In this document: positions 5,506-39,815 of the stretch, piece after piece
How the letters are laid out: each line of letters starts with the position of its first letter
Position numbering within the stretch: position 1 is the stretch's first letter
Assembly (NCBI GenBank): GCA_964564685.1
Contig: CAZMBC010000002.1
Coordinates: forward strand, 71,170-135,169
Direction of reading: 5' to 3'
Origin: an uncultured Christensenella sp.
GTDB taxonomy: Bacteria > Bacillota > Clostridia > Christensenellales > UBA1242
DNA: 64,000 nucleotides
Position numbers and translations under genes: made by a program
Notes under the pieces: generated by a model
Told to the model about the DNA's origin: nothing
Seen by the model: only the letters and a program-made list of their open reading frames with translations
Databases searched by the model: none

Positions 5506-6770
5506 TGTTTTTAGATAAGGTTACTATTTTTTGTAAAGCGGGAGATGGTGGAAACGGAAAAGTTTCGTTCAGACGCGAGAAATATGTTCCAAATGGTGGG
5601 CCCGATGGCGGTGACGGCGGTAAAGGTGGCGACATTGTGTTTAAAGTTACAAACAAAGTGTCGAACCTAGGTGAATTCCGTTTTAAAAAGCATTTTAGAG
5701 CAGAGAATGGCGAGGATGGAGGAAGCAATAATCGTTTTGGCAAATACGGACAAGACCTTGTTATATACGTTCCACAAGGCACAGTTATAAAAAATGCCAC
5801 AAACGATAAATTGCTTGCGGACTTGTTGGAACTTAATGACGAGTGCGTGCTATTAAAAGGCGGCATTGGTGGCAGAGGGAATGCAAAATTTGCAACCCCA
5901 ACTAGACAGGCACCAAAGTATAGCGAATTGGGCGTTAAAACACAGGAGTTTGAAATTAAATTGGAACTTAAAACAATTGCAGACGTGGGTGTAGTTGGAT
6001 TTCCAAATGTAGGAAAAAGCACACTTTTGGCAAGTGTTTCGAATGCAAAACCCAAAATTGCAAACTATCACTTTACAACACTTGCGCCTAACATTGGTGT
6101 GGTAAAGGTGTTTGATAAATCCTTTGTTATGGCAGATATTCCAGGTTTGATTTCGGGCGCAAGTGAAGGCGTGGGATTAGGACTTGATTTCTTGCGTCAT
6201 ATTGAGCGTACAAGATTGCTTATTCATGTAGTGGATATTTCTGCAAGTGAGGGAAGAAATCCTTATGAGGATTATTTGGCAATTAATAGAGAACTTAAAA
6301 ATTATAGCGATAAAGTTGGCGATATTCCACAAATTGTTGCGCTTAACAAAATAGACTTGGTTACTGACCAATCCTTGGTAGAGGATTTTATTAAAAAACT
6401 ACCAAAAGGTATACAATGTTACAAGATTAGTGCTGGTGCATATATTGGTTTAAATGAACTATTGGAGGGCATTGTTAAAAAGTTGGAGAGCTTACCTAAA
6501 GTAGAACGTATGGAAGTTGAGGAGTACAACATTGATAAGGTTAAAGAACGCACGTTCCAAGTAATTAAATTGGATGGCTCTACCTACGAGGTTAAGGGAA
6601 ACATTATAGACGAAATTTTGCGTAGGGTCGTTTTAGATGATTATACCTCTAATGCGTATTTCCAAAAACAACTTAAAGAAGAGGGTATAATTGAGGCCTT
6701 AAAACAAAAAGGTTTAAAAGATGGCGACACGGTTAGAATTGACGGCTATGAATTTACTTACGAAGATTAA
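5502..6770 (+). CDS. obgE: GTPase ObgE/CgtA
   Basis: Gly-rich Obg fold (GDGGNG, GGPDGGDGG), GFPNVGKST, DIPG, NKID, C-terminal OCT domain. Confidence 0.97.
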   Translation: MMFLDKVTIFCKAGDGGNGKVSFRREKYVPNGGPDGGDGGKGGDIVFKVTNKVSNLGEFRFKKHFRAENGEDGGSNNRFGKYGQDLVIYVPQGTVIKNATNDKLLADLLELNDECVLLKGGIGGRGNAKFATPTRQAPKYSELGVKTQEFEIKLELKTIADVGVVGFPNVGKSTLLASVSNAKPKIANYHFTTLAPNIGVVKVFDKSFVMADIPGLISGASEGVGLGLDFLRHIERTRLLIHVVDISASEGRNPYEDYLAINRELKNYSDKVGDIPQIVALNKIDLVTDQSLVEDFIKKLPKGIQCYKISAGAYIGLNELLEGIVKKLESLPKVERMEVEEYNIDKVKERTFQVIKLDGSTYEVKGNIIDEILRRVVLDDYTSNAYFQKQLKEEGIIEALKQKGLKDGDTVRIDGYEFTYED

Positions 6771-8953: not shown

Positions 8954-10233
8954 TGTTTATACAAAGTATTATTGATAAAAAAAGAAGTGGCCTTGTGCTT
9001 TCTAAAGACGAAATTGATTTTGCTATTTCGGGCTATGTTAATGGTGAGGTTTTAGATGAGCAAATGAGTGCGCTACTTATGGCAATAATGATTAACGGGA
9101 TGAATATTAAGGAAATATATAACCTTACAAAGGCCATGCAGAATAGTGGCAAAACTTACACTTTTCCGTTTGAGGTGGCAGATAAGCATTCTAGTGGCGG
9201 GGTCAGCGATTCAACAACGCTTATTTTACTTCCAACATTAAGCGCCTTAAATGTTAAAGTTGCAAAAATGAGTGGCAAGTCGCTAGGCTTTACGGGCGGA
9301 ACAATTGATAAAGTTGCGATGTTTAAAGGCTTTAACACAGAGCTTAACCAAACGGAGTTTAAAACCGCTTTAAACAATGTGGGTGGTGCGCTTATTAGTC
9401 AAAGTGAAGAGATTGCACTAGCGGATAAAAAAATATATGCCTTGCGCGATAGGTGCGCGTGTGTGGAAAGCATTCCGTTAATTGCATCATCCATTATGAG
9501 CAAAAAATTGGCATCCGGTGGCAATACTATTCTTTTAGATGTTAAGTGCGGAAAGGGTGCTTTTATGAAGGATAGGCATTCTGCAATTAAACTTGCCAAA
9601 ACTATGGTTAAAATTGGCAAAATGGACGGAAAAAACATCCGAGCTGTGGTTAGTAATATGAACACACCTTTAAGTGCTGGTATAGGATGTGCACAGGAGG
9701 TTTACTGTGTAATAAAGGCGCTAAATAGAGAGGATAGTGACCTATTGGAGCTAAGTAAAATCCTTTCTGCACATTTATATTCCATGTGCGAATGTGTTGA
9801 TTATACTTCAGCATACAACGAGGTTTGTAGAACGATAAACAGCGGAAAGACAAAGAACAAACTTATGCAAATTGTTAAAAATCAGGGTGGAGAGTTAGTT
9901 AATTTTGAAAATCCTGAACAATTGCTTTATTCAAAAGTTATAACACCAGTTATTAATGATACTAAAAGCGGATATATATCTAAAATTGATGCGCTTGTGA
10001 TGGCAAAAGTGCAAAAATATCTGCAAGAATCCGCCCCTGAAAGATACAAGTGCTTATGCGGAATTATGCTTAGTATAGGTGTGGGACAACGTGTAGAGCG
10101 GGGGCAGGAGTTAGCAAAACTATATTCAGCAAATGAGGTTGCACCTGAAATTCTTGACTTGTTTTTAAGTGGAATTACTGTTTCGGGTAAGCCCGTACGA
10201 AAAGAAAAATTAATTTTAAAGGTTATTAAATAA
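8953..10233 (+). CDS. pdp: Pyrimidine-nucleoside/thymidine phosphorylase
   Basis: DKHSSGGVSD, KMSGKSLGFTGGTIDK, YALRD, SIMSKKLA. Confidence 0.9.
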   Translation: MFIQSIIDKKRSGLVLSKDEIDFAISGYVNGEVLDEQMSALLMAIMINGMNIKEIYNLTKAMQNSGKTYTFPFEVADKHSSGGVSDSTTLILLPTLSALNVKVAKMSGKSLGFTGGTIDKVAMFKGFNTELNQTEFKTALNNVGGALISQSEEIALADKKIYALRDRCACVESIPLIASSIMSKKLASGGNTILLDVKCGKGAFMKDRHSAIKLAKTMVKIGKMDGKNIRAVVSNMNTPLSAGIGCAQEVYCVIKALNREDSDLLELSKILSAHLYSMCECVDYTSAYNEVCRTINSGKTKNKLMQIVKNQGGELVNFENPEQLLYSKVITPVINDTKSGYISKIDALVMAKVQKYLQESAPERYKCLCGIMLSIGVGQRVERGQELAKLYSANEVAPEILDLFLSGITVSGKPVRKEKLILKVIK

Positions 10234-23119: not shown

Positions 23120-25861
23120 TTATTTATTTGAGTTATTCGTTTTGCGATTGCGATTAGATTTGTTTTTTAAACTATCACCGCTCATAAGTTTAGCGTCATC
23201 TTCGTCATTTTGGGGTTGTTTCTTTTTATACGTTATATAGAAAGCAATAACAGCAACTAAAAGTAGAATTGATATGCAGAACATTATAATAGTTACTACA
23301 AAACCACTGGAAAGCCCGTCCATTTTAATATATTGTGTTTTTACATATCCCTCGTGTTGGTTGTGCTCAGAATCTATAAACGAAACAAGAGTATAAGCAT
23401 GATTTTTGTCGTAATCCTTAACATAAATTTTTTGACCATTTTGTAGTGGAATGCGCTCAACATCTTCTGCGTCACTAGCTGTATCGTACATATAAGCAAA
23501 TTCACTATGGTCCAAAATTCTTATAGTGGCATTAGTTTCTAGTTTGCCCGATGAAACAATACTTTTGGTTACATCACCATTATATACATAGCCGTAGCGG
23601 TTACCAAGTTTAACAATATAATAAAAGGAATCTTGTCCCTCTAAACAGCCGTTATAAATGCCTACTGCGGTAAATACTGACCCTATGTCAATAGTATCGG
23701 AAACAATATTACTTGCAATAGTAGGGTATTTGTAAATGCTAACATCTTTGTTGTTTGCGCGTAGTTTATATTCTTGTACTGTATAGCTAGTTGGCTCTAT
23801 AGCTATTTGTGTAGGAGTAACATAACCAATCTCAAGTTTGTTATTCATAATATACCCAATACGCACAAATTCTGTGGCTTGAGTGATGTGCTCTTGTAAA
23901 ACAAGTGCAACAATGTTTGAGTTGCCAGTGTAAACAAAGTCCCCTTTAAAGTTAACTGTACTATAAATAAATGAGTTTTGCGTAATTGTGCCATAAGATA
24001 ATACATTTTCCCAACAGGTTATACTGTTTATAATTTCATATTGGTGTGGAAAATCACTTAAACCCTTACTGAATTGCAAATCAGTTATTGTTTGCAAGCA
24101 ACTTTTTCCGGTGTTAAATGCGTAAATTGTGCCCGTTGCTGGGTTTAGACTAAAGGTGCTGCAAGTGCATTTTGTATCAAGCGTATCAAAGGTTGGGGTA
24201 GATGTTAATGCGCTTTTGATAATGTTGTTGTTTACAAGCGCAAATACATTGTTTGAATAGTCTATTTCAAAAGTATCCACATTTTCAGTAAAGGATAAAC
24301 TAACAATTGAATCAACAACGCCATAGTTACTGGCAGGAGAGTTATCTTCGTTAACTAATAAGCGATATATAGTATTATCAACACTTATATATATCATGTT
24401 GTCTATTTCCGAATATCTAATAACCGAATTAAGATTGGCGGTTGCGCCCGTAATTTCAGTTATAATTGGTTCAGATGTGTACTCGGTGTATACTAATATC
24501 TCGTTTGTAGCATAATTTAGTGCATATAACTTTCCGCTGTTGTCCATGCAAAGGCTGTTAACCTGTTTTGGAACTTCTATGCTGTTAAATAAAGTGTTGT
24601 TGTATAGGCCATTGCTATAACTTAATCCATTTATATTTTGTTTTAAGCCATCCTGACTTTCGCTTAGGTAAATAAGGTTATTATTGTTATCTAGTATCAA
24701 GTTGCTTGGAGTATATACATTGTTTATTGCTGTTATTTGTGTTTCGTTAGCTCTGTTAATTATCTGCAAGCGGTTGTTATTATAATCGCTGACAAAAATA
24801 TACTTATCATTTTTAAGTGCAATAGAGTTTACGCCATCAAATCTACCAACGCTGTTGCCTTTGCCGGCTAGCATAACACTTGAAGCAGATAATCCAATAG
24901 AAGCGTCATCCTCATCTACATATAGCATGGAAGATTGGATGTTATTATGTGTTTGGTTATAGCTGTATACAACATTGTTTGAGCTATCTAAAATTATAGG
25001 ATTTCCATAATCGTTTTTATTTGCTATTTGGTTAAAGCCAGAGTCAAATAAATATAAATTATTGTTATCACATGCAAGGAAATAGTAGGATTGTCCATTA
25101 AATTGCAAGGTATCTAAACTATTTAAATTAAATTCCTCATTCTTTAAAAACTCGCTTGTGGTATGGTTGTTTTCTATTGTATCACCGGTAAAAATGTAGT
25201 TTCTAATAACTTCATCATTACCGTAAGTAAATACATAATCATTGCTAATGGCAATTTGTTGTATGGTGTAATTTATGCTAATACTTTTACTGGTGTAATC
25301 ACTATAGTCAGTAACATCTGTAAATTGAGTTATATAAATAATATTTTCCGTTTGGCCATAAACATTGGATATGCTAGCAACATAATAATTTGTACCGTCA
25401 AAACATATGTCATAGGGTGTATTAATGGTGTTTGTTATACCTGAAACTGAAGAAACATAAAGGTCGTTTACATATACAGGTGTTTCGTTGGTGTTAACTG
25501 CATATATTTTAACCTTAAGCTTTTCATGTACAAGCAAATAGCCGTTTACAAACTTAACCGAATGTACTTCGTTTGAAAAAGTAAGCAAGTGTGTTAGTTG
25601 TTGATTGTTAAAGTTATAACCATACAGTTTGTAATCAGAGGTGTCAGTTAGAACAAAGTACATTTGTGATGTGGTTGCAAAGCAAAAACTCTTCATTCCT
25701 GTAAGGTCAACATAATCCATAATTCCGTCTGGTAAAATTGTTTCATAAACCGCGTTTGAAACCGGCGATTCGTCTTCTGCCATAACAGAGTGGGTGGCAG
25801 GAAATAGTGTTGCAATTGCTAATATAACTAATGTAATTAAACCAAATTTAAACTTTTTCAT
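23120..25861 (-). CDS. Large exported, C-terminally membrane-anchored protein (beta-propeller/NHL-like repeats plus SH3-like domains)
   Basis: Signal peptide; NHL-like GRFDGVNSIAL...IFVSDYNNNRLQI; SH3-like ends GYVYNGDV, EGYVKTQYI; C-terminal TM plus basic tail; RBS before ATG 25861. Confidence 0.75.
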   Translation of the reverse strand: MKKFKFGLITLVILAIATLFPATHSVMAEDESPVSNAVYETILPDGIMDYVDLTGMKSFCFATTSQMYFVLTDTSDYKLYGYNFNNQQLTHLLTFSNEVHSVKFVNGYLLVHEKLKVKIYAVNTNETPVYVNDLYVSSVSGITNTINTPYDICFDGTNYYVASISNVYGQTENIIYITQFTDVTDYSDYTSKSISINYTIQQIAISNDYVFTYGNDEVIRNYIFTGDTIENNHTTSEFLKNEEFNLNSLDTLQFNGQSYYFLACDNNNLYLFDSGFNQIANKNDYGNPIILDSSNNVVYSYNQTHNNIQSSMLYVDEDDASIGLSASSVMLAGKGNSVGRFDGVNSIALKNDKYIFVSDYNNNRLQIINRANETQITAINNVYTPSNLILDNNNNLIYLSESQDGLKQNINGLSYSNGLYNNTLFNSIEVPKQVNSLCMDNSGKLYALNYATNEILVYTEYTSEPIITEITGATANLNSVIRYSEIDNMIYISVDNTIYRLLVNEDNSPASNYGVVDSIVSLSFTENVDTFEIDYSNNVFALVNNNIIKSALTSTPTFDTLDTKCTCSTFSLNPATGTIYAFNTGKSCLQTITDLQFSKGLSDFPHQYEIINSITCWENVLSYGTITQNSFIYSTVNFKGDFVYTGNSNIVALVLQEHITQATEFVRIGYIMNNKLEIGYVTPTQIAIEPTSYTVQEYKLRANNKDVSIYKYPTIASNIVSDTIDIGSVFTAVGIYNGCLEGQDSFYYIVKLGNRYGYVYNGDVTKSIVSSGKLETNATIRILDHSEFAYMYDTASDAEDVERIPLQNGQKIYVKDYDKNHAYTLVSFIDSEHNQHEGYVKTQYIKMDGLSSGFVVTIIMFCISILLLVAVIAFYITYKKKQPQNDEDDAKLMSGDSLKNKSNRNRKTNNSNK

Positions 25862-26073
25862 AATTCCTCTTTTTATCATATGCAATTATTATAGATATAA
25901 TATTTTTATATGTATTATAACAAAATAGTTTATAAAACGGCAACGAATAACCAATTATTTATAAAAATAATTATTGAAAATAAAAGTAAATTTTAAAACT
26001 AGGCATATTTTAAATTTTTTTTAAACAACTTTTAAACTATGACAGACAGTTGTCAAAATAAGTGATATATAAT

Positions 26074-26155: not shown

Positions 26156-26184
26156 TTGACTTTTAATATTTACAAAAATATAAT
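26156..26184 (+). promoter_or_regulatory. Near-consensus sigma-A promoter for the activator-like gene
   Basis: TTGACT-N17-TATAAT; RBS AGGAGG before ATG 26213. Confidence 0.7.
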
Positions 26185-26212
26185 AGGGTAAAAGTAGCAT
26201 TTAGGAGGGAAA

Positions 26213-26764
26213 ATGGAAATACTATGTAAAACAATTTTATCGGTGTATAAATATCTTGGGGCGATATCGGGGGCGATAGATAATTTGGTTATTAAAAAGA
26301 GTGTAAACTCTTCGTTTTATAACAATGGAAGGTTTAGTAGTGCATATGACTGTGCAAACGAGATTATGGAATTAACTGACCGCAAAGTTAACTTAATTAA
26401 CCTAAAGGTATTAACCGAGGATTGCTTAATGGAGCTTCAGCCATTGGAGCGTAAGGTGCTTTCGCTTTTATTTTTGGATAATGTAAAGCGCGAAAGTATA
26501 TGTGAGGTGCTGGAAATTTCTACGCGCACATTTTTTAGAAAAAGAAACGAAGGGATTGTTGCTTTTGAAAAATCTTTGTGTAGGCGGGGATATAACAAAG
26601 AAAAAATATTAGCCATGTTCGAAAAAGAAAAATGGCTAATTAATTTATACAAAAAAAATGGCGGAGTTATAGGACAAAATAGCCCGCTGTTCTATTCAAA
26701 TAGCAACGATTTTAGATTTATTAATAATATCATGAAAGGCTATGTTATGGCAAATGCAAACTAA
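26213..26764 (+). CDS. RinA/ArpU/Xpf-like transcriptional activator (sigma region-4-type HTH)
   Basis: LQPLERKVLSLLFLDNVKRESICEVLEISTRTFFRKRNEG resembles the C-terminal HTH of phage late activators; position ahead of packaging genes. Confidence 0.6.
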   Translation: MEILCKTILSVYKYLGAISGAIDNLVIKKSVNSSFYNNGRFSSAYDCANEIMELTDRKVNLINLKVLTEDCLMELQPLERKVLSLLFLDNVKRESICEVLEISTRTFFRKRNEGIVAFEKSLCRRGYNKEKILAMFEKEKWLINLYKKNGGVIGQNSPLFYSNSNDFRFINNIMKGYVMANAN

Positions 26765-27513
26765 AGTCGTTCGTCAATTTCGGTTATATCATATTTTTGT
26801 GATTGTTTTATAGTTTTTTTGGGTTTTGGTTTACGATAAAGTAAAAATATTATCACAAAAGTAGGCAAGCTTAAAATTACAATTGTTAGCGCAGTTTCAC
26901 CATCACTTAATGGGTTGATTATAGAGTCGTAATCGTCACTTGTGTAGGATAGTTGTTCTGCATTTGGGAATATAGTGTTTATAAATGAAATGTATTCATT
27001 ATAAATGTAGCCTTTTGTGCCTAAATATTCCACATAGTACCATATGTTGTCATCAAAGTCGCCAATTTGTTCGCCGTATGTCATGCCAATAAAGGTAAGA
27101 CCGCTATAATTGCTGGGCACAATCGAAATAGTATTGTTTTCCTTTGTTGGCGTTTCGCGCAGATAGCAATTTTTGTTATATGTGGTAAGCTTTATATTGT
27201 TTGGGTAAGGTGTTTCTGGAGCTCCATTCACTTTTTTAACCTTATCTTTTTCAATATATCCGCTTGTTCCATTATAATTTACTTTATACAAGCTTTCGTT
27301 ATATGATGAAAGGATTTCTACATAATATGTGTTTTCAGCAACGCATATTATGTTTTTTATAGCCTGATTAACCTCAGGTGTGCGATATAAGTATGCCCCC
27401 TTAAAGGTAACCTGTGCCCATGTGCCATCTTTTGCAAAGGCTACTGATATTGGATTAGTACATATGGATAGGTAAATCACAAAACAAACTATACCATAAA
27501 CAAATTTTTTCAT
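26761..27513 (-). CDS. Exported two-SH3-like-domain protein with C-terminal TM anchor
   Basis: Signal peptide; LYKVNYNGTSGYIEK and WYYVEYLGTKGYIY SH3b-like motifs; TM followed by RKPKPKK. Confidence 0.75.
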   Translation of the reverse strand: MKKFVYGIVCFVIYLSICTNPISVAFAKDGTWAQVTFKGAYLYRTPEVNQAIKNIICVAENTYYVEILSSYNESLYKVNYNGTSGYIEKDKVKKVNGAPETPYPNNIKLTTYNKNCYLRETPTKENNTISIVPSNYSGLTFIGMTYGEQIGDFDDNIWYYVEYLGTKGYIYNEYISFINTIFPNAEQLSYTSDDYDSIINPLSDGETALTIVILSLPTFVIIFLLYRKPKPKKTIKQSQKYDITEIDERL

Positions 27514-27587: not shown

Positions 27588-29042
27588 TTGGCAAACGGGA
27601 TAGATATGAGAAAAAAAGAGATAGAACGGCGTTTGGAACAGGTGGAAAAGCAGATTAGATACAAAAAAGAAAATTGTCGTTTAGAAACCTATAACACGGG
27701 TAACAAGGTGCATTTAAAACAACTTATGTTCCACAAATGTCAAAAAAGAAACAGGTGGGTTTTTGGCGGAAACCGAAGCGGAAAAACCGAGTGTGGCGCG
27801 GTGGAAACAATTTGGTTGGCGCGAGGGATACACCCGTTTAGACCAAACAAACCTGACATAAGCTGTTGGGTGGTCTCGCTTTCTACACAGGTACAAAGAG
27901 ATGTGGCTCAAAGCAAAATTTTATATTACTTAAACAAAGATTGGATAGTGGATATTATTATGCTTTCGGGTAAAAAATCCTCTGCAAAAATGGGCGTAAT
28001 AGATACCATATTAATTAAAAATGTATTTGGCGGAGTAAGTAAAATTGGCTTTAAAAGTGTTGACCAAGGTCGCGAAAAATTTCAAGGAACGTCGCTTGAC
28101 TTTGTGTGGTTTGACGAAGAACCGCCCTACGATATTTATACCGAATGTAAAATGCGTGTTATTGATAAGGATGGAGAAATATTTGGAACAATGACACCAC
28201 TTAAGGGACTGACATGGGTGTATCACACAATATATTTAAACGAAAGCAACTCACCTGAAAACTGGTACATCCAAATGGAGTGGAACGACAATCCGTTCTT
28301 AAGCAAAAAAGACTTAAAGGAACTAGAAAATTCTTTAAGCGAGGAGGAATTAAATGAACGAAAACTTGGTTTATTTTCTGGCCATAGCGGGCTTGTTTAT
28401 AGCGAATTTAATGAATGTGTTAATGTTATAGAACCTTTTAATGTGCCCAAAGAATGGTACGACAAAATATCAATTGACCCTGGTTTTAAAAACCCTTTGA
28501 GCGCACACTGGTATGCGGTGGATTTTGATGGCAATGTGTATGTGATTGCCGAGCATTACGAAAAAGATAAAACTATTGAATATCACGCCCAAAAAATTTT
28601 GGAAATTTGCGATCGCTTGGGCTGGCACCGTAATTATAGTGGAAAGGTGGAGGCACTTATTGATAGCGCGGCAAATCAGCGTACTTTGGCAAGTGTGAAA
28701 AGTGTATCCGAACTATTTTTTGAACTAGATATTGCTGTTAACCCTAATGTTAATAAGGACTTGTTTACAGGAATTCAGCGTGTTAAAAGTTATTTTAAAA
28801 ACGCGCAAGGCAAGTCACGACTTTTTATATTTAAAAATTGTCCAAATCTTATTAGAGAAATTAAAGGCTACTTTTGGAACAAGGATGATGTGCCTTTTAA
28901 AAAGGATGACCATGCTTTAGATGAGCTAAGGTATTACATAATGTCAAGACCAGAAAACGCCCCTAAAAAACCCGAAAAAACTGCTGTTCAAAAAGATAAA
29001 GAACGACTATATAAAGCAATAAAATATTCTAACAGATATTAG
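27588..29042 (+). CDS. Terminase large subunit
   Basis: Walker A GGNRSGKT, Walker B VWFDEE, coupling motif TMTP, RNase H-like nuclease SIDPG...DSA...DHALDELRY. Confidence 0.93.
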   Translation: MANGIDMRKKEIERRLEQVEKQIRYKKENCRLETYNTGNKVHLKQLMFHKCQKRNRWVFGGNRSGKTECGAVETIWLARGIHPFRPNKPDISCWVVSLSTQVQRDVAQSKILYYLNKDWIVDIIMLSGKKSSAKMGVIDTILIKNVFGGVSKIGFKSVDQGREKFQGTSLDFVWFDEEPPYDIYTECKMRVIDKDGEIFGTMTPLKGLTWVYHTIYLNESNSPENWYIQMEWNDNPFLSKKDLKELENSLSEEELNERKLGLFSGHSGLVYSEFNECVNVIEPFNVPKEWYDKISIDPGFKNPLSAHWYAVDFDGNVYVIAEHYEKDKTIEYHAQKILEICDRLGWHRNYSGKVEALIDSAANQRTLASVKSVSELFFELDIAVNPNVNKDLFTGIQRVKSYFKNAQGKSRLFIFKNCPNLIREIKGYFWNKDDVPFKKDDHALDELRYYIMSRPENAPKKPEKTAVQKDKERLYKAIKYSNRY

Positions 29043-29049
29043 GTGGCAA

Positions 29050-29355
29050 ATGAAAAAAAAGTTAAAAAAATTGAATGAAGCGCTGTACAAAAAGGCGCTA
29101 GGTTATACTGCGGAGGAAATTAGTGAAGAGTATAGTTTGGTGGATAATGAGCTTGTGCTTTCCAAGCGCAAACTTAACACAAAAAACTATCCACCCGACC
29201 TTAACGCCTTGCAGTTTCTTTTGGGCGAACTAGAGGGTAAAGAAGAAAATGTGTACGAAAACTTTAGTTTAGAGGAGCTTGAGCAAGAGCGAAAGCGCTT
29301 GCGTGAACTGCTAGATAAAGGTGCAACCTCTGCGGGATTTAATCAAACTGAATAA
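29050..29355 (+). CDS. Terminase small subunit-like protein with no N-terminal HTH
   Basis: EALYKKALGY...KNYPPDLNALQFLL resembles the oligomerisation core of HTH-type phage TerS; the motif starts at about residue 10. Confidence 0.55.
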   Translation: MKKKLKKLNEALYKKALGYTAEEISEEYSLVDNELVLSKRKLNTKNYPPDLNALQFLLGELEGKEENVYENFSLEELEQERKRLRELLDKGATSAGFNQTE

Positions 29356-29364
29356 GGAGAAAAT

Positions 29365-29577
29365 ATGAAAATTGAGGAAATAACCTACAAGATATGTTGT
29401 GATATGCCTGGATGTGAAAACTTGGCAAAATACAGCCTGTTTAACACTAAGTCCAAAGGTGATGCATGCATTAACATGTGTGCAGATTGTGTAAGACAAC
29501 TATACGAAAACATAGGGGCGTTTTTGGTGCCCAAAAGTCCAAAAAATATATTAAACAACAATACAAAAAAGAGGTAA
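29365..29577 (+). CDS. Small Cys-rich, putative Zn-binding protein
   Basis: CDMPGC...CADC; good RBS AAGGAG. Confidence 0.6.
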   Translation: MKIEEITYKICCDMPGCENLAKYSLFNTKSKGDACINMCADCVRQLYENIGAFLVPKSPKNILNNNTKKR

Positions 29578-29579
29578 TT

Positions 29580-31457
29580 ATGACAGAATTAAACAATGAA
29601 TTATCAAATGATAAAATGCTTGTTCATGAGGTGTTAGAAGATTTTAAACAGCGCCAAATAAACAAACGCGCATTTGAAAGCACTTGGCAGTTAAACATCA
29701 ACTTTTTGCTAGGAAATCAGTATTGCTTTTTAAATGGAAAAAATGACCTTATAGATGAGAAAAAACAGTTTTTTTGGCAGGAGCGAGAAGTGTTTAACCA
29801 CATTGCACCAATTGTGGATTTGCGTATGTCCAAGCTGGCAAAAATTCGTCCTGCACTAACAATCGTGCCTTTTAGTGATGACCCAAAGGATATTGCTTGT
29901 GCAAAGGTAAGCAAAAATCTTATTAAGTCAATTTCATATGATTTAAATCTAAATAGCATTATTGCAAAAGCAACCATGTGGAGTGAAATTACTGGCACAT
30001 CTTTTTACAAAGTAAGTTGGAATGCGCAAAAAGGTCGTTTGGTTTCTTATGACGAAAATGGAGCACCTGTTTATGAGGGCGAAGCAGAAATAACAGCCGT
30101 ATCGCCATTTGAAATTTATCCCGACAGCAACACATATAGTCAGGTGGATGATTGCAAAAGCATTATTCACGCAAGGGCTTATCAGGTAGATGAAATTAAA
30201 AATATTTGGGGAGTAGATGTAAAGGGTGATGACATTGATGTGTTCTCGCTTGAAAGTATTACAAATCTTGGTGGGTTAGGATATCAGGCTAGCGCTACAA
30301 GTGTAGGCAAAAAAATGCAGAAAAACCATGCAGTTGTTATTGAACGCTATGAAGCCCCTAGTGTTGAATTCCCTAATGGGCGATTGGTTATTGTGGCGGG
30401 TGAGCGCCTTATACATGTTGGCGAATTGCCATACGAAAACCAACTTAACTCAAAACGCGGTTTCCCGTTTATAAAACAATGCTGCTTGCCAGTTCCAAAT
30501 TCGTTTTGGGGAACAAGTATCATAGAACGCTGTATACCCGTTCAGCGCGCATACAATGCAGTTAAAAATCGTAAACACGAATTTTTAAACCGTATTTCAA
30601 TGGGAGTTTTGGCTGTTGAGGATGGTTCGGTTGATATTGAAAATTTGGAAGACGAAGGATTGTGTCCTGGCAAAATTTTGGTGTATAGACAAGGTGCTAC
30701 ACAACCTAAAATGCTTGCTTCCGAAACCATCCCTGCTTCGTTCGAAAACGAGGAAGATAGGCTACTAGAGGAGTTTTTAAACATAAGCGGGGTAAGTGAT
30801 ATGCTAACCAATCACACAATCAGAACGGGAAATATAAGTGGTGTTGCACTTCAGTTGCTTATGGAACAAGACGAGGAGCGTATTTTAACAAGTGCGGACG
30901 AAATAAAGTCTGGCGTTAAAGAAATTGCAAAACACATATTGCGACTTTATAAGCAATTTGCAGTTATTCCGCATACTTCACGCTTGGTGGGTGAAAATGG
31001 TGGAATTGAGATGTTCTATTGGAAAAATTCGGACATCACAAGTGAAGATGTTGTATTTGAAACTGAGAACGAACTAACGCAAACAGTCACACAAAAACGT
31101 TCCTTTATTTACGACCTTTTAAACACAGGTTTGCTACAAGACGAAAGTGGAAAAATGACAAATTCTACCAAACAAAAAGTGCTTGAACAGCTAGGATTTG
31201 GTATTTGGGATAATACGCAGGATTTGCGTAGTTTGCAAACAAATAGAGCAAATGATGAAAATTACAACTTGATTAAAACACATGAAATTAATGCGCCAAT
31301 GGAAATTGATGACCATAATATTCACATAAACGAGCACGTATGTTTTATGTTAGGAAAAGAGTTTGAAAAGGCGGTCAAGCACAATCCTGACATTCAACAA
31401 ACTATGCTAGCTCATATTCGCGAACATAAAAAATGCAACAATCAAAATCATGAATAA
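29580..31457 (+). CDS. Phage portal protein (P22/T7-like size)
   Basis: ~625 aa, follows terminase; FNHIAPIVD, FWGTSIIE, ISGVAL motifs; RBS GAGGT before ATG 29580. Confidence 0.82.
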   Translation: MTELNNELSNDKMLVHEVLEDFKQRQINKRAFESTWQLNINFLLGNQYCFLNGKNDLIDEKKQFFWQEREVFNHIAPIVDLRMSKLAKIRPALTIVPFSDDPKDIACAKVSKNLIKSISYDLNLNSIIAKATMWSEITGTSFYKVSWNAQKGRLVSYDENGAPVYEGEAEITAVSPFEIYPDSNTYSQVDDCKSIIHARAYQVDEIKNIWGVDVKGDDIDVFSLESITNLGGLGYQASATSVGKKMQKNHAVVIERYEAPSVEFPNGRLVIVAGERLIHVGELPYENQLNSKRGFPFIKQCCLPVPNSFWGTSIIERCIPVQRAYNAVKNRKHEFLNRISMGVLAVEDGSVDIENLEDEGLCPGKILVYRQGATQPKMLASETIPASFENEEDRLLEEFLNISGVSDMLTNHTIRTGNISGVALQLLMEQDEERILTSADEIKSGVKEIAKHILRLYKQFAVIPHTSRLVGENGGIEMFYWKNSDITSEDVVFETENELTQTVTQKRSFIYDLLNTGLLQDESGKMTNSTKQKVLEQLGFGIWDNTQDLRSLQTNRANDENYNLIKTHEINAPMEIDDHNIHINEHVCFMLGKEFEKAVKHNPDIQQTMLAHIREHKKCNNQNHE

Positions 31458-31469
31458 AAAGAGGATAAG

Positions 31470-32108
31470 ATGGAAGAAATACAAAAATTAAATGGAGAAC
31501 AACCACAAGACAACGGCTCTACTGCAACGGCAGAATTTGACGAAATAGCATCGGCGTCAGAAGGCTCTCCATTAGGTAAATTTAAAGATGCCAACAGCCT
31601 GCTTAACGCGTATAACAACTTGCAAAGCGAGTTTACAAAAAAGTGCCAAAAGTTAAGCGAGTTGGAAAAGCTTGGGATGCGTGATAATGCTTCTGAAGAT
31701 GTTTCGGAAACACCATGCTATCTTAAGGAAGATTGGCATAGCACTTTGGCGGAGTTTTTAAACACCCATAAAAGTGCAAAGGTGTTTGTAAACGAAATTG
31801 CAGAGGAAATTAGTAAAGATAAGGTTTTGGCATGTGGCAAAAACCCCTTGAATATTGCTTATGCAAAAGTTTTGGACAAACACTACAAAACAAATGAGGA
31901 ACTGTTTAAAGATGACAAATTTTTGAATGAATATCTTAAAAACAACCCTCAAATTGTTAACGACATTGTTAAAAAATATTTAGCTGAACTGCCAAAAACT
32001 CCACGAGTTATGGCGGAAACACGAGGATGCGCAACTACGCTTACGCCAGCAGTTCAACCTAAAGATTTAAATGAGGCAATGAGTATGGCACAACTTTTAT
32101 TTAAATAA
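31470..32108 (+). CDS. Capsid scaffolding protein
   Basis: Acidic N-terminus, LLNAYNNLQSEFTKKCQKLSELEK coiled coil, C-terminal helix; lies between portal and capsid. Confidence 0.7.
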   Translation: MEEIQKLNGEQPQDNGSTATAEFDEIASASEGSPLGKFKDANSLLNAYNNLQSEFTKKCQKLSELEKLGMRDNASEDVSETPCYLKEDWHSTLAEFLNTHKSAKVFVNEIAEEISKDKVLACGKNPLNIAYAKVLDKHYKTNEELFKDDKFLNEYLKNNPQIVNDIVKKYLAELPKTPRVMAETRGCATTLTPAVQPKDLNEAMSMAQLLFK

Positions 32109-32124: not shown

Positions 32125-33315
32125 ATGGTAACATTAGACACCGCAGATAAAGCGTTAAAAACAGTATATTTGGGCGTTATTTCCAACCAACTAAATGTAA
32201 ATACAAACCCTTTATTTGCAAAAATTAAACAATCTTCTACCTATGTAACAGGTAAGGAAGTAAGAAAAGTTGCACCTTTTGGTATCAATGGCGGTATTGG
32301 TGCAGGTGCAGAAGATGGACCGCTTCCTTTAGCAGGCGGAAACAACTATGTTCAATTTGTTAGCCAACTTAAAAACTTGTATGGAACAATTGAAATTTCG
32401 GATAAGGCAATACGAGCAAGCCAAAACAACGCTGGCGCATTCGTAAATCTTTTAAATGCTGAAATGGAAGGCCTTATCAAAGCAAGCGCTTATAACTTTA
32501 GCAGAATGCTTTATGGAAACGGCTCGGGCTTTTTAGCAGAATTAACATCTGCAGCATCAAGTAGTTCAGCACAAAGTGAAGTTGTAACAGTTGATAGTGT
32601 TCAGAACTTAATTGAAGGTATGACAGTTGATGTTATAGACTCTACAGATAATAGCAAATTGTATGGTGGTTTAAGAATTGTTTCTATTAACAAAACCAAT
32701 AAACAAGTAACATTAAACAAAAAAATCTATGTAGCAGATGTGTCAGATGGCGGTTTTAAACTTACTGTTCAAAACTCTCTTATGAACGAGATTACAGGTA
32801 TTGAAGCGTTGTTTGACCCAACAGTATCTACTTTGTACGGAGTTTCTAAATCAAGCAATCCTTGGTTAACCCCTTATACAAAAACAAACGCAGGAGCAAT
32901 TAGCGACGCGTTAATTCAAACAGCAATTGACGAGTTAGACGAAAATGTTGGTAGTGATATTGACTTTATTTCTTGTTCAAGTGCAGTTAAACGTGCTTAC
33001 CAAACCTATTTAAGCACATATCGCAGAAATATTGATACAATGGAGCTTAATGGTGGTTTTAGAGCAATAAGCTATGGTGGAATTCCTATCATGAGCGATC
33101 GCTTTGTTGGTGGCCAAAATATGTTGCTTTTAAATACCAAAGAGTTTACATTGCATCAGCTTTGCGATTGGCAATGGTTGGAAGGTGATGACGGTTCCGT
33201 TCTAAAACAAAAAGCAGGCTACCCAGCATATACCGCAACCCTTGTAAAATATGCCGAATTAATTTGCGATAAACCATCTGGTCAAGGCAAAATAAGTGGC
33301 ATTACTATTTCTTAA
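32125..33315 (+). CDS. Major capsid protein (HK97 fold)
   Basis: 396 aa; KNLYGTIEISDKAI, RMLYGNGSG, SYGGIPIMSDRF, LVKYAELICDKP; position after scaffold. Confidence 0.85.
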   Translation: MVTLDTADKALKTVYLGVISNQLNVNTNPLFAKIKQSSTYVTGKEVRKVAPFGINGGIGAGAEDGPLPLAGGNNYVQFVSQLKNLYGTIEISDKAIRASQNNAGAFVNLLNAEMEGLIKASAYNFSRMLYGNGSGFLAELTSAASSSSAQSEVVTVDSVQNLIEGMTVDVIDSTDNSKLYGGLRIVSINKTNKQVTLNKKIYVADVSDGGFKLTVQNSLMNEITGIEALFDPTVSTLYGVSKSSNPWLTPYTKTNAGAISDALIQTAIDELDENVGSDIDFISCSSAVKRAYQTYLSTYRRNIDTMELNGGFRAISYGGIPIMSDRFVGGQNMLLLNTKEFTLHQLCDWQWLEGDDGSVLKQKAGYPAYTATLVKYAELICDKPSGQGKISGITIS

Positions 33316-33330
33316 TAGAAAACAATATAT

Positions 33331-33360
33331 GGGGTAAGTTTATTCTTGCCCCTTTATTTT
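33331..33360 (+). terminator. Intra-operon terminator or stabilising hairpin after the capsid gene
   Basis: GGGGTAAG-TTTATT-CTTGCCCC-TTTATTTT. Confidence 0.65.
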
Positions 33361-33373
33361 TAAAGGAGGAGTT

Positions 33374-33754
33374 ATGAAAATTCTAATACAAAACGATATG
33401 TTTAATATCGCTAAACGATTAAAAAATATAGACAGTGATTATTTTGTTTTGTTTAATACAAAAAACAAAAAATTCGAGTTGCACAACTCTGCACAGGGTA
33501 AAAGCACCTATTGCTTAACTTTTCCTTTTGACACACTGGATGCGCGTGCTATTGAGCACACCTTTAAAACTAGTGTACGAAACTCCAGTAAGATTTTTTT
33601 TGAGATTGAAGAAACAAATAATAAAATTGAAACAGCGCAAAACGAAAAAATTTTAGACGAATGTAAATGTATTTTTAAGGATATATACAATTATTCTAAC
33701 GCCCACACAAAAGATTTTGATGTGGAAGATATATATAAAAACAAATGGATTTAA
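33374..33754 (+). CDS. Phage-module hypothetical protein
   Basis: 126 aa, strong RBS AAGGAGGAG, inside the morphogenesis operon. Confidence 0.65.
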   Translation: MKILIQNDMFNIAKRLKNIDSDYFVLFNTKNKKFELHNSAQGKSTYCLTFPFDTLDARAIEHTFKTSVRNSSKIFFEIEETNNKIETAQNEKILDECKCIFKDIYNYSNAHTKDFDVEDIYKNKWI

Positions 33755-33768
33755 AAAAAGGAGAAAAT

Positions 33769-34329
33769 ATGACTGTAAAACAAATAATAACGGATGTTGC
33801 ATACTTACTGGATGATAACCGATTGCTTACTGCAATTAATACAGATAATTTTGCTGGACACTTACAAAATGAACAAAACCTTTTAGTAAAATGTGTAAAT
33901 TTTGTCAATAACATTATAGCAACTGACTACTTTCCCCTTATTTCTAGCAAAAAACTGCTAACAAATGTAAATACTGTGCCATTTTCAGACATAACAAAAT
34001 CAACTATTTTTGACATCTTGCAAGTAAAAGACGATTACGGATATGTTACGCCGTTTAAGGTTACTAATGAAGGAGTAGAAACTGTTAAAGGCAATATCAC
34101 AATTAAGTATGCATATTTGCCAGAAGATGTAACTTACGATTCAAGTATAACAGCTTATCCTATTAAAATTAACACACGTATTTTTGCCTACGGAGTTGCA
34201 AGTGAATACTTGTTTATAAAAGGCAATTACGATGATGGTGAAATCTGGGAAGAACGTTTTAAAAATGCAATGAAAGCCTTGCAAAGAACACGAAAAAATG
34301 TTGTTATGCCTAAAAGAAGGTGGAAATAA
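33769..34329 (+). CDS. Putative head-tail adaptor (T7 gp11/P22 gp4-like role)
   Basis: ~186 aa; C-terminal YGVASEYL...WEERFKNAM helical pattern; position after capsid; RBS before ATG 33769. Confidence 0.55.
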   Translation: MTVKQIITDVAYLLDDNRLLTAINTDNFAGHLQNEQNLLVKCVNFVNNIIATDYFPLISSKKLLTNVNTVPFSDITKSTIFDILQVKDDYGYVTPFKVTNEGVETVKGNITIKYAYLPEDVTYDSSITAYPIKINTRIFAYGVASEYLFIKGNYDDGEIWEERFKNAMKALQRTRKNVVMPKRRWK

Positions 34330-37868: not shown

Positions 37869-38116
37869 TGTGGGAAAAAATATTTAACTTGGCAATTTCA
37901 AATGGAATATGGGCGGTCCTTTTTTTAGCATTGTTGGTATTTCAGCTAAAAGATAGCAGAACGCGCGAACAAAAATATCAGAAAACTATAGAAAACTTGT
38001 CGACCTCGTTGGAAGTGGTTAAGGATGTTAAGGAAGATGTAAGCGAAATTAAGGCGCATCTTAACATGGTTTCGCCAAAATCCGATGTTAAAACGGAGGT
38101 TGCGGATGAAAAATAG
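37868..38116 (+). CDS. BhlA/UviB-family holin-like protein
   Basis: LAISNGIWAVLFLALLVFQLKDSRTREQKYQKTIENL is the BhlA/UviB pattern. Confidence 0.8.
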   Translation: MWEKIFNLAISNGIWAVLFLALLVFQLKDSRTREQKYQKTIENLSTSLEVVKDVKEDVSEIKAHLNMVSPKSDVKTEVADEK

Positions 38117-38684
38117 ATTTAAGACTTATGGGTTTTGGATGTCGCTTTCTAGTGCAATTATAATTTTAATACAAAGTGTGGCATCGCTTTTTGGCTACGA
38201 ATTTCAAACTACATTAATAGAAAACATAATTATGGCAGTGTGTGGTGTATTGGTTGTGTTGGGTATTGTTAATAAGCCCGCGCAAACCGAGCCACTACAG
38301 AATGAAGAAACAACACAAGATAATTCTGGTGCGTCTGATGAAGTTAAGGAAACCTTTGAAGAAAACTTGATGTTTAAAACAACTGATGTAGAAATGCAAA
38401 CATGTTTGTTTAATGACAAAAATGAAGAACAAAGTACAATTCCAGATATGTTGGAAACTGTTGAAAACATAGCTAAAAGTGTAGTTTTGAACAATGAGTT
38501 GCAAGTTTTTAAAAAAGAACCTGAGGCCATTTCTGTTGTGGATAATGATAATAGTAAAAGTGAGACAAATCTAAAACAATCAGCACAAAATAATTGTTTT
38601 GAAAATGTATCTTCTAATAGCGATAATGATATTATGATTGCCGAGCGAGTTCGCGTAAGCGATTCTGACGAAAATTTTCACTAG
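38106..38684 (+). CDS. Phage holin-like protein (two TMs) with long acidic C-terminal tail
   Basis: NRFKTYGFWMSL...LVVLGIVNKP resembles phiLC3-type holins; ~130-aa acidic low-complexity tail; RBS GGAGG before ATG 38106. Confidence 0.6.
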   Translation: MKNRFKTYGFWMSLSSAIIILIQSVASLFGYEFQTTLIENIIMAVCGVLVVLGIVNKPAQTEPLQNEETTQDNSGASDEVKETFEENLMFKTTDVEMQTCLFNDKNEEQSTIPDMLETVENIAKSVVLNNELQVFKKEPEAISVVDNDNSKSETNLKQSAQNNCFENVSSNSDNDIMIAERVRVSDSDENFH

Positions 38685-38734: not shown

Positions 38735-38765
38735 AAAAAGCACAGCAAAAATGCTGTGCTTTTTT
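38735..38765 (+). terminator. Terminator closing the phage-derived operon
   Basis: AAAAAGCACAGCA-AAAA-TGCTGTGCTTTTTT. Confidence 0.85.
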
Positions 38766-38864
38766 GTTTGTATTAGTGCCATTTGTTGGATTAAATTAAT
38801 TAAAAGCAGTTTAAATAATTGCCAAAAAGTGAAATATGATTTATACTACAAAAAGAGGTGTTTT

Positions 38865-39815
38865 ATGCTTTACAAGAATACATTTAAACTCATGTTTTCT
38901 AATGCAAGTTTGATTTGGAAACTTTTAATATACTTTATTGTAGCCTTGGCTTTTGTTCTTGGCCTTATGTTTGTTGTTAGTTTGCCAATTTATGAGGTGC
39001 TAGTTGCGGAAGGTTTTTTTGAGGCTATTTCGGATACTTATTTTGACTTTATTACATCATTAAATCTTAAGGTTTTGTTTGAAAATATTTCGCTTCTTTC
39101 CACAATGTTTGTACAAATTATCATTGGCAACTTTACTAAACTTGTTGTGCCTATAATAGCATTCTTATTTGTTTCGATTATTTTAGGTGGTTTTGTATTT
39201 AACTTATATCAGATGCCAACAGCAGGTGTGCTAAACATATATATGAACAGCAATGTTAAGCAAGGTTTTATGACTAACTTTTTTGGCACAATTAAGCGCA
39301 ATTTAGCGTTTGGCGGAATGTATTTAATAACGCTTTTACCGCTTGATTTAGGGATATTTGCATTATTAGTTTATGCATTAAGATTGTTTAAGTTAAACGG
39401 AATAATCCTTGTACTTGCGCCATTTATTTTAATAGTTGGTTTTACGCTTTTGCAATCACTTAAACTAACACTAACCTGCGGATGGGTGCCCGCTATGGTC
39501 ACAAAAAACAAAGGTGTAATTACGGGCCTAAAAGGCAATTTTATTGTTGCAAAGCGTCGTTTTTGGCAAACTTTCGGAAATGCTTTTGTACTTGTTGTAA
39601 CGCTTATATTTATTAACGTATTTGGATGCCTTTGTAGTTTTGGTGTTGCGCTTATTATAACAATTCCTTTATCCTTTTTGCTAACCAGCATTTTTGGAAT
39701 GGTTGCGTATTATATGTCGATTGGTCAAAGGTTTTATGTTGACCCATACAATGTTATTGCTCCCAAAACAATGGAATATACAGAAAAACTTCGTACTCAA
39801 AAATACACGATTTAA
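38865..39815 (+). CDS. Multi-pass membrane protein of unknown function
   Basis: About six hydrophobic segments; RBS GAGGTG before ATG 38865. Confidence 0.75.
   Translation: MLYKNTFKLMFSNASLIWKLLIYFIVALAFVLGLMFVVSLPIYEVLVAEGFFEAISDTYFDFITSLNLKVLFENISLLSTMFVQIIIGNFTKLVVPIIAFLFVSIILGGFVFNLYQMPTAGVLNIYMNSNVKQGFMTNFFGTIKRNLAFGGMYLITLLPLDLGIFALLVYALRLFKLNGIILVLAPFILIVGFTLLQSLKLTLTCGWVPAMVTKNKGVITGLKGNFIVAKRRFWQTFGNAFVLVVTLIFINVFGCLCSFGVALIITIPLSFLLTSIFGMVAYYMSIGQRFYVDPYNVIAPKTMEYTEKLRTQKYTI

Follow-up and report, generated by a model that had tools for sequence, protein, structure and literature searches.

GTAs are hard to separate from prophages by sequence, and the few GTA small terminases that are known are of obscure ancestry. 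The DNA analysed here, a 64-kb stretch referred to as the window, carries a phage-like gene cluster in which a short gene resembling a terminase small subunit (TerS) follows the large terminase gene (TerL) and appears to have no DNA-recognition HTH. The locus raises the questions of where such a protein comes from, how it might take part in packaging and to what extent it identifies the cluster as a GTA rather than as a decayed prophage.

Gene content of the cluster

The gene in question, here named small101, starts with an ATG located 8 nt past the TAG stop of the 484-aa TerL. The initial annotation had described a 101-aa reading frame downstream of TerL with a characteristic motif at about residue 10, and the position, the ATG and the motif start (residues 10-11) were all verified. 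The N-terminus reads MKKKLKKLNEALYKKALGYTAEEISEEYSLVDNELVLSKRKLNTKNYPPDLNALQFLLGE..., and the motif runs ALYKKALGY...YPPDLNALQFLL from residue 11 (also written ...NEALYKKALGYTAEEISEEY...NYPPDLNALQFLLGE...). The open stretch of the frame begins at 29023, and because just nine in-frame codons separate the previous stop from the ATG, no upstream HTH is hidden by a mis-called start. Database copies of the protein are all named "hypothetical protein". The features of the cluster, all on the forward (+) strand, are as follows:

26156-26184, +: promoter TTGACT-17-TATAAT ahead of the regulator gene (sequence)
26213-26764, +: sigma-70 region-4/DUF1492-like regulator (phrog_36, 1.8e-10; DUF1492, Sigma70_r4_2)
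27588-29042, +: TerL, large terminase, 484 aa (Terminase_6N, 1.3e-11; phrog_2, 2.5e-32)
29041-29046, +: small101 ribosome-binding site, AGGTGG; overlaps the stop codon of TerL (read from the sequence)
29050-29355, +: small101, HTH-less small-terminase-like protein, 101 aa (ORF, ATG start, 101 codons)
29365-29577, +: zn70, zinc-ribbon-like, 70 aa, four Cys (CxxxxC...CxxC), basic tail VPKSPKNILN (between small101 and portal)
29580-31457, +: portal protein, P22/SU10-like (P22_portal, 1.3e-13; phrog_156, 6.8e-31)
31470-32108, +: 212-aa protein, assigned as scaffold from its place between the portal and capsid genes (conserved in the related loci; no family match)
32125-33315, +: major capsid protein, podovirus type, 396 aa (NF033394 capsid_maj_Podo, 3.9e-76; phrog_14242, 2.8e-55)
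33745-34329, +: head-tail adaptor, SU10-like, weak (PF24175, 8e-4, below the cut-off; position conserved)
38085-38684, +: holin, lysis end of the cluster (Phage_holin_1, 1e-8; phrog_297, 2.2e-12)

Walker A (GGNRSGKT), Walker B (FVWFDEE) and the nuclease aspartates are all present in the TerL translation. From 26.2 to 39.8 kb the cluster comprises the regulator, TerL, small101, portal, scaffold, capsid, adaptor, structural proteins and holin, and it is flanked by host genes (gyrBA, deacetylase, SSB and RNase J). Family scans of the window between 21.6 and 44.5 kb revealed no integrase, repressor, replication or lysogeny genes, and there is no terminator-like site between the TerL and portal genes. 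Among cultured phages, Arthrobacter phage Adat and Cellulosimicrobium phage DS1 come nearest in TerL and capsid, at less than 30% identity.

The possibility that the sigma-like DUF1492 protein is a hidden TerS was rejected: it matches phrog_36, a family of transcription regulators, and a gene on the opposite strand lies between it and TerL. Because of this regulator-family match and the intervening opposite-strand gene, it is taken to be the cluster's probable activator.

Relationship to phage small terminases

Scans of small101 against Pfam and NCBIfam assigned it to no family. In the PHROGs scan it matched phrog_309, "terminase small subunit" (E 2.2e-5), with residues 7-59 aligned to positions 197-243 of the 319-position profile. 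A profile of the 17 closest homologues collected 776 cluster representatives at E<=1e-3 (408 at E<=1e-10), and 128 of the 776 were scanned individually against PHROGs. Phrog_309 was matched by 95 of these 128 (best 1.3e-10) and phrog_23444, also a TerS family, by 22; no other family recurred. A repetitive protein of 1066 aa (P0034), with 15 weak matches, was set aside as an artefact.

Searching cultured phage genomes with tblastn gave weak matches only (E 0.05-0.3). Three of the four records matched are nevertheless annotated terminase small subunits, those of Klebsiella phage VLCpiS13d (two records, one genome) and Pseudomonas phage PfAn1, which themselves match phrog_309 at 2e-58 and 3e-43, respectively. 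When the small101 family alignment was compared by hhalign with six phage TerS (Klebsiella, Pseudomonas, CUS-3, Lactococcus 50901, a Streptococcus satellite and Enterococcus EFP1), residues 7-60 aligned with residues 68-116 at 96.2% probability (E 2.5e-9). That small101 is homologous to the core of one family of phage TerS, as the initial annotation had suggested from the motif, is therefore well supported by profile matches, individual scans of relatives, the cultured-phage matches, profile-profile alignment and the structural comparison given below. That annotation had also considered that a full TerS might be encoded elsewhere. A phage-TerS HMM run against the six-frame translation of the whole window had small101 as its sole match (E 8e-8), and no full-length TerS of the PHROG 309 family was found elsewhere in the 64 kb.

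Predicted structure

The AF2 monomer model of small101 (mean pLDDT 79.6, pTM 0.43) contains a helix at residues 2-17, a long beta-hairpin at 19-47 and two further helices at 51-65 and 74-95. The parts of the protein are as follows:

29050-29073, +: Lys-rich N-terminal tail, MKKKLKKL, net charge +5 (sequence)
29053-29100, +: predicted helix 1, residues 2-17; contains ALYKKALG, a motif common to phage TerS (AF2 model, alignment)
29104-29190, +: predicted beta-hairpin, residues 19-47; strand 1 acidic, strand 2 basic (SKRKLNTK) (AF2 model)
29191-29244, +: PPD motif and helix 2, residues 48-65 (alignment, AF2 model)
29269-29334, +: C-terminal amphipathic helix, residues 74-95, SLEELEQERKRLRELL (AF2 model, alignment)

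The hairpin region aligns with the hairpin region of phage TerS, and in the C-terminal helix L77, E80, L84 and L88 are invariant or nearly so. By analogy with RcGTA gp1, this helix is a candidate TerL-binding segment. TerS proteins are built of an N-terminal HTH, a central oligomerization helical hairpin (in some phages with an inserted beta-hairpin), a stalk and a C-terminal moiety (PMC9611059). The modelled helix/beta-hairpin/helix of small101 and its C-terminal helix fit this description of the TerS core, and to call the motif an oligomerization core is reasonable, a label that we infer from the predicted topology.

In a Foldseek search of the model against BFVD, the top matches were four entries named "Terminase small subunit" (142-234 aa, E 4e-5 to 2e-3). 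Against the PDB nothing was significant, the best E value being 0.38 (IHF/HU, MS2-coat), and an HU-like reading of small101 was dropped owing to the insignificance of the IHF/HU matches. A PDB sequence search with the small101 family profile and two phage TerS queries found no relevant match and no solved relative.

Loss of the HTH and inversion of the gene order

In phage TerS (for example ...YCLLGATDKQLAMFFDVSEQTINAWKQRHPSF...ADAKVAQALYSRALGYEHPEDDIKAVNGEIVVTPTIKRYPPDPTSMIFWLKNRQPKLWRDK...) the HTH occupies approximately residues 20-60, and the motif in common with small101 begins near residue 70. An HTH precedes this motif in Klebsiella phage VLCpiS13d, Pseudomonas phage PfAn1, CUS-3, Lactococcus phage 50901 and others. 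In the joint alignment, small101 and its relatives start at the end of the phage HTH, with about 60 N-terminal residues absent. Long forms in IMG/VR (144-198 aa, on viral contigs of 20-70 kb) match the phage-TerS profile from position 1-10 (E 1e-25 to 1e-52), whereas the small101 profile matches them only from residue ~58 onward, in some cases to the C-terminus. For example, positions 5-94 of the small101 profile fall on residues 58-146 of a 148-aa protein, and in phage TerS of 148-166 aa the profile extends through the C-terminal helix. The protein is thus collinear with a phage TerS that lacks its first ~57 residues. Both the alignment and the IMG/VR profile scan bear out the earlier proposal that the N-terminal HTH is missing in comparison with the closest phage homologues.

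The usual terS-terL order is inverted, as had likewise been proposed. Every IMG/VR long form with a detected TerL lies directly upstream of it, and every complete short form (90-110 aa) lies directly downstream of a window-type TerL, 57-68% identical to that of the window. The short forms often overlap the 3' end of TerL by 16 nt, which suggests translational coupling. They share the portal-scaffold-capsid cluster, and in two cases gyrB-gyrA are found on the same "viral" contig.

A second element has disappeared along with the HTH. In the alignment, PPD is followed by the basic motif FWLKNR(K/Q)PxxWRDK in the phage proteins, and small101 has the acidic LLGELEGKEEN in its place. The protein is net acidic except for its Lys-rich tail, and this tail and the second hairpin strand are the only obviously basic regions remaining. 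At the tail position the relatives are basic, of low complexity and variable in length, and several carry long Lys/Ala-rich, histone-tail-like extensions in place of the HTH. No HTH and no Pfam domain was found in the N- or C-terminal extensions that some relatives have, these being Lys/Ala-rich and of low complexity. It may be speculated that the basic tail and strand and the Lys/Ala-rich extensions would suit sequence-independent contact with DNA. Since the protein is net acidic outside the tail, even non-specific DNA binding by small101 is uncertain.

Distribution, conservation and selection

A one-genome-per-species scan yielded at least 250 loci with a small101 relative, of which 80 were retrieved for comparison. 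The latter are MAGs labelled Clostridia, Christensenellaceae, Christensenella, Catabacter, Borkfalkia and CAG-727, mostly Christensenellales. When the window proteins were compared with these 80 loci by tblastn, the order TerL-small gene-(zn70)-portal-scaffold-capsid-adaptor was found in essentially all of them, TerL being 57-90% and the capsid protein 42-85% identical to the window counterparts. The small gene lies downstream of the same TerL type at every related locus with a TerL detected nearby. Genes gyrB and gyrA are upstream in many loci, and in several Christensenellaceae loci directly upstream of TerL. Two long contigs with close homologues have neighbourhoods identical gene for gene: gyrA, polysaccharide deacetylase, SSB-domain protein, a secreted protein of ~920 aa (- strand), sigma-70-r4/DUF1492-like regulator, SH3 membrane protein (- strand), TerL, small gene, Cys-rich gene, portal, scaffold, capsid, further structural genes and holins.

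The orthologues of small101 (n=86) are all short, from 78 to 157 codons with a median of 98, the largest values representing over-extended start calls. The dN/dS ratio of the small gene is 0.12-0.19 where dS is unsaturated, synonymous sites being saturated in most pairs, and by this sequence measure the gene is under purifying selection. Given 86 orthologues of median 98 aa, these dN/dS values and the 776 cluster representatives, small101 is a real gene and not a chance ORF. The same data bear on an alternative view of the cluster, as a decaying prophage or satellite in which small101 would be the truncated remnant of a full TerS. Such an origin would account for a protein shorter than its phage homologues, for the unusual gene order and for the classification of some copies as viral in IMG/VR. 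It is nevertheless largely refuted and highly improbable: the gene keeps the same length class at 86 loci under purifying selection, all the structural genes around it are intact and keep their order in about 80 species genomes, and no integrase or replication genes were found. Furthermore, the cluster is fixed beside gyrBA, and the IMG/VR copies are this same chromosomal cluster, gyrB/gyrA included. Judged from sequence comparison, the cluster bears the signatures of a domesticated, vertically inherited element rather than of a decaying prophage or satellite.

The small gene is always found directly before the portal gene, or before zn70 followed by portal. In one sub-lineage (loci L021, L032, L049-51, L060, L070 and L076) it is the first gene of the portal operon, and the nearest 10 kb contain no TerL; because this sub-lineage keeps the gene before portal, the small gene is linked more closely to portal than to TerL. 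It might hence be that small101 derives from a TerS but was co-opted as a head-assembly or portal-associated factor, TerL working alone as in phi29-like systems, which have no TerS. The location downstream of TerL and invariably ahead of portal, even in loci without a nearby TerL, would agree with such a role, as would the disappearance of both the HTH and the basic WLKNR..WRDK patch; moreover, Adat and DS1 have two small genes between TerL and portal that are unrelated to small101, and no annotated TerS. Three observations make co-option unlikely: the conserved C-terminal helix is common to small101 and phage TerS, the frequent 16-nt overlap points to a stoichiometric partnership with TerL, and Pfam and PHROGs scans detected no similarity of small101 to a structural-protein family.

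Another possibility is raised by zn70, the gene that separates small101 from portal in roughly half of the related loci and is absent where the small101-portal gap is below 130 nt. This protein, or some other factor docking on the truncated TerS, could supply DNA recognition in trans, so that a split, two-part TerS would still package sequence-specifically. The conserved CxxxxC...CxxC arrangement and the basic VPKSPKNILN tail of zn70, and the tightly packed operon that it shares with small101, would be in line with this. Many loci are without zn70, however, and it can therefore be no general requirement. In addition, zn70 matched no family in Pfam, PHROGs and NCBIfam scans, its structure model is unusable (pLDDT 51.8) and nothing ties it to DNA binding. 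A two-part TerS is thus distinctly improbable.

Comparison with other small terminases

The PHROG 309-type TerS of VLCpiS13d, PfAn1, the P22-like CUS-3 and Lactococcus 50901 (gp30) share with small101 the ALYxxAxGY helix, the beta-hairpin, K-x-YPPD and the next helix, and those of Gram-positive phages also the C-terminal "EEL..RL" helix. In both cases the gene adjoins TerL. The phage proteins are, however, 141-198 aa long, with an HTH of ~60 residues and the FWLKNRxPxxWRDK motif, and are encoded directly upstream of TerL, whereas small101 has neither HTH nor basic motif and is encoded downstream. Because the alignment of small101 with full-length phage TerS holds at the level of single residues, it shows explicitly which parts were removed (HTH and basic patch) and which were retained (core and C-terminal helix), and this pattern of loss and retention offers a testable sequence signature for GTA-type terminases.

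A precedent is gp1 (rcc01682) of RcGTA from Rhodobacter capsulatus, a packaging-essential protein of 107 aa with no HTH and weak DNA binding (Sherlock et al., 2019; PMC6854486). Its C-terminal helix binds TerL (ATPase domain), and its binding to DNA is non-specific (PMC6854486). The statement of the initial annotation that the RcGTA small terminase is short and has no conventional DNA-binding domain is correct according to this source. Similarly to gp1, small101 has ~100 aa, no HTH, a putative oligomerization region at the start and a C-terminal helix, and belongs to a domesticated, vertically inherited cluster. The two differ in that gp1 has an all-helical, T4/44RR-like predicted structure and is encoded immediately upstream of TerL, while small101 has a predicted 29-residue beta-hairpin, appears to come from another TerS family and is encoded downstream; the function of gp1 is experimental and that of small101 deduced from sequence. 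Among the traits given for GTA-type small terminases (PMC6854486), small101 has the short length (~90-125 aa) and the absence of an HTH, whereas it is neither upstream of TerL nor almost entirely helical.

A canonical HTH is also absent from T4-type TerS (gp16; 44RR TerS), with which packaging starts at random, without a pac site (PMC9611059). These belong to replicating lytic phages that degrade host DNA, have a simple helical hairpin fold and show no detectable sequence relation to small101. Because T4-type phages also do without the HTH, its absence alone is no GTA diagnosis. The initial annotation had taken loss of the HTH as the most direct hint of a GTA; a GTA is indeed plausible, mainly from the genomic context, while the missing HTH by itself is not sufficient for this conclusion. 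The diagnosis comes from HTH absence combined with order-wide chromosomal conservation. The stronger evidence lies outside small101: the cluster keeps its gene order at a fixed chromosomal site throughout the order, its genes are intact, and modules for replication or integration are absent. At the level of the element, the window shows two features of a GTA, namely a phage-like structural and packaging cluster without replication, integration and lysogeny genes, and a conserved locus with vertical inheritance and purifying selection.

Proposed role in packaging

On balance it is somewhat probable that small101 is the HTH-less TerS of a domesticated podovirus-like, GTA-like element which packages DNA without reading a pac site. 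The protein descends from a phage TerS of the PHROG 309 type that lost its N-terminal HTH of ~60 residues and the WLKNR..WRDK patch and kept the helix/beta-hairpin/helix core together with the C-terminal helix. Its gene shares a transcript with that of a P22-type TerL, to which it is probably also coupled in translation, within a complete-looking podovirus-like head/packaging/lysis cluster of ~12 kb that lies close to gyrBA and is passed on vertically across Christensenellales. The core would still form a ring that engages and activates TerL, with the C-terminal amphipathic helix making the contact as in RcGTA gp1. With the pac site unreadable, packaging could begin on any cellular DNA and would end by headful cutting, and the resulting GTA-like particles would contain host DNA. 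As a minimal TerS-TerL pair, small101 and TerL would allow the start of packaging to be studied where no site is recognized.

A GTA terminase without a DNA-binding domain is already established, in RcGTA gp1 and in FpGTA; small101 is distinguished by an ancestry that is unusually clear and appears to be different, by the predicted beta-hairpin as a different fold element, by the inverted gene order and by its host clade. FpGTA of Faecalibacterium prausnitzii (Nat Commun 2026) is a podovirus-like GTA with a putative DBD-less TerS upstream of TerL (PMC12946183). Literature searches for the Christensenellales cluster found no description of it. In the FpGTA study, GTA-like packaging of host DNA was also reported for two Christensenellaceae MAGs, HGM11616 sp900761075 and QANA01 sp019420265, with read-length peaks at 4.1 and 6.3 kb, and no element was identified there (PMC12946183). 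Christensenellales are abundant in the human gut and have been seen to shed capsids with random host DNA of 4-6 kb to which no element has been assigned, and the small101 cluster is a concrete candidate for this Christensenellaceae GTA-like packaging in human stool.

A more far-reaching reading, to which we give slightly less than an even chance, is that small101 is the specificity-less TerS of an ancient, order-wide, vertically inherited podovirus-like GTA which lies beside gyrBA in Christensenellales and is the source of the host-DNA packaging in Christensenellaceae. In this case a PHROG-309-type TerS would have lost the HTH and the basic patch and moved to behind TerL. If true, gut Firmicutes would have, besides FpGTA, a second kind of GTA of independent origin. 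Both clusters are found in gut Clostridia, are podovirus-like and contain a DBD-less putative TerS, TerL, portal, scaffold, capsid and holin. Compared by annotation only, the two differ: the FpGTA TerL (RCH50852) and portal (RCH50851) have consecutive accessions, implying no annotated gene between them, whereas in the window two small genes separate TerL from portal. The FpGTA capsid protein is annotated as N4-gp56 family, whereas that of the window matches NF033394 capsid_maj_Podo.

Terminal extensions in relatives of the small terminase-like protein

Some members of the family of the HTH-less small terminase-like protein carry, in place of the HTH, low-complexity extensions of 60-150 residues which are rich in Lys and Ala and resemble histone tails. 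The extension is N-terminal in the relatives P0162, P0140 and P0103 and C-terminal in P0087 and P0116, and may be a source of sequence-independent DNA contact.

Organization of the terminase region

The small gene and the portal gene flank a further ORF:

29365-29577, + strand: zn70, a 70-aa protein

No family match was obtained for zn70. Judged from its sequence, it looks like a zinc ribbon because of the conserved pattern K-C-[DE]-x-x-G-C ... C-x-x-C and the basic tail VPKSPKNILN. It was found in approximately half of the related loci and is missing where the gap between the small gene and the portal gene is below 130 nt.

By TerL and capsid, the nearest cultured phages are Arthrobacter phage Adat and Cellulosimicrobium phage DS1, neither of which has an annotated TerS. 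Similarly to the window, both carry two small genes between TerL and the portal gene (L095:3655-4748 in Adat and L096:4013-4930 in DS1); however, these are unrelated in sequence to the small genes of the window.

In one sub-lineage (L021, L032, L049-L051, L060, L070 and L076), the small gene opens the cluster and is followed by zn70, the portal gene and so on, as exemplified by L021:9986-12322, and no TerL was found within 10 kb of the small gene. TerL must be located elsewhere in the genome or have been lost, and the cluster is thus split. In two other loci, TerL and the small gene are separated by approximately 3-4 kb of inserted DNA: L027 (TerL at approximately 5473, small gene at 10001) and L102 (small gene at 9968), where TerL was detected only as a fragment (5659-6189). 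Upstream of the cluster in L021 there are ABC-transporter genes on the opposite strand.

Flanking genes and signals

Upstream of TerL, the window contains:

23120-25885, - strand: secreted protein of 921 aa, anchored at its C-terminus; its NHL/beta-propeller-like matches are weak
26156-26764: sigma-70 region-4/DUF1492-like regulator and its promoter
26761-27513, strand opposite to the regulator and TerL: conserved SH3-domain membrane protein

The loci nearest to the window share the 921-aa protein (24-46% identity), likewise encoded just ahead of the cluster. A near-consensus promoter (TTGACT-17-TATAAT, 26156-26184) lies in front of the regulator, and no sigma-70-type promoter of comparable strength was found ahead of TerL. 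The SH3-domain gene stands between the regulator and TerL. This layout is also seen in the related loci L001, L002, L004, L013, L052, L059, L083 and L084.

Two features lie further downstream:

33331-33352, + strand: GC-rich hairpin followed by a T-run, immediately 3' of the capsid gene
38751-39815, + strand: 354-aa protein after the holin

The position directly 3' of the capsid gene is typical of attenuators in phage late operons. The 354-aa protein, encoded where an endolysin would be expected, matched no lysin family and is kept in related loci with 23-74% identity.
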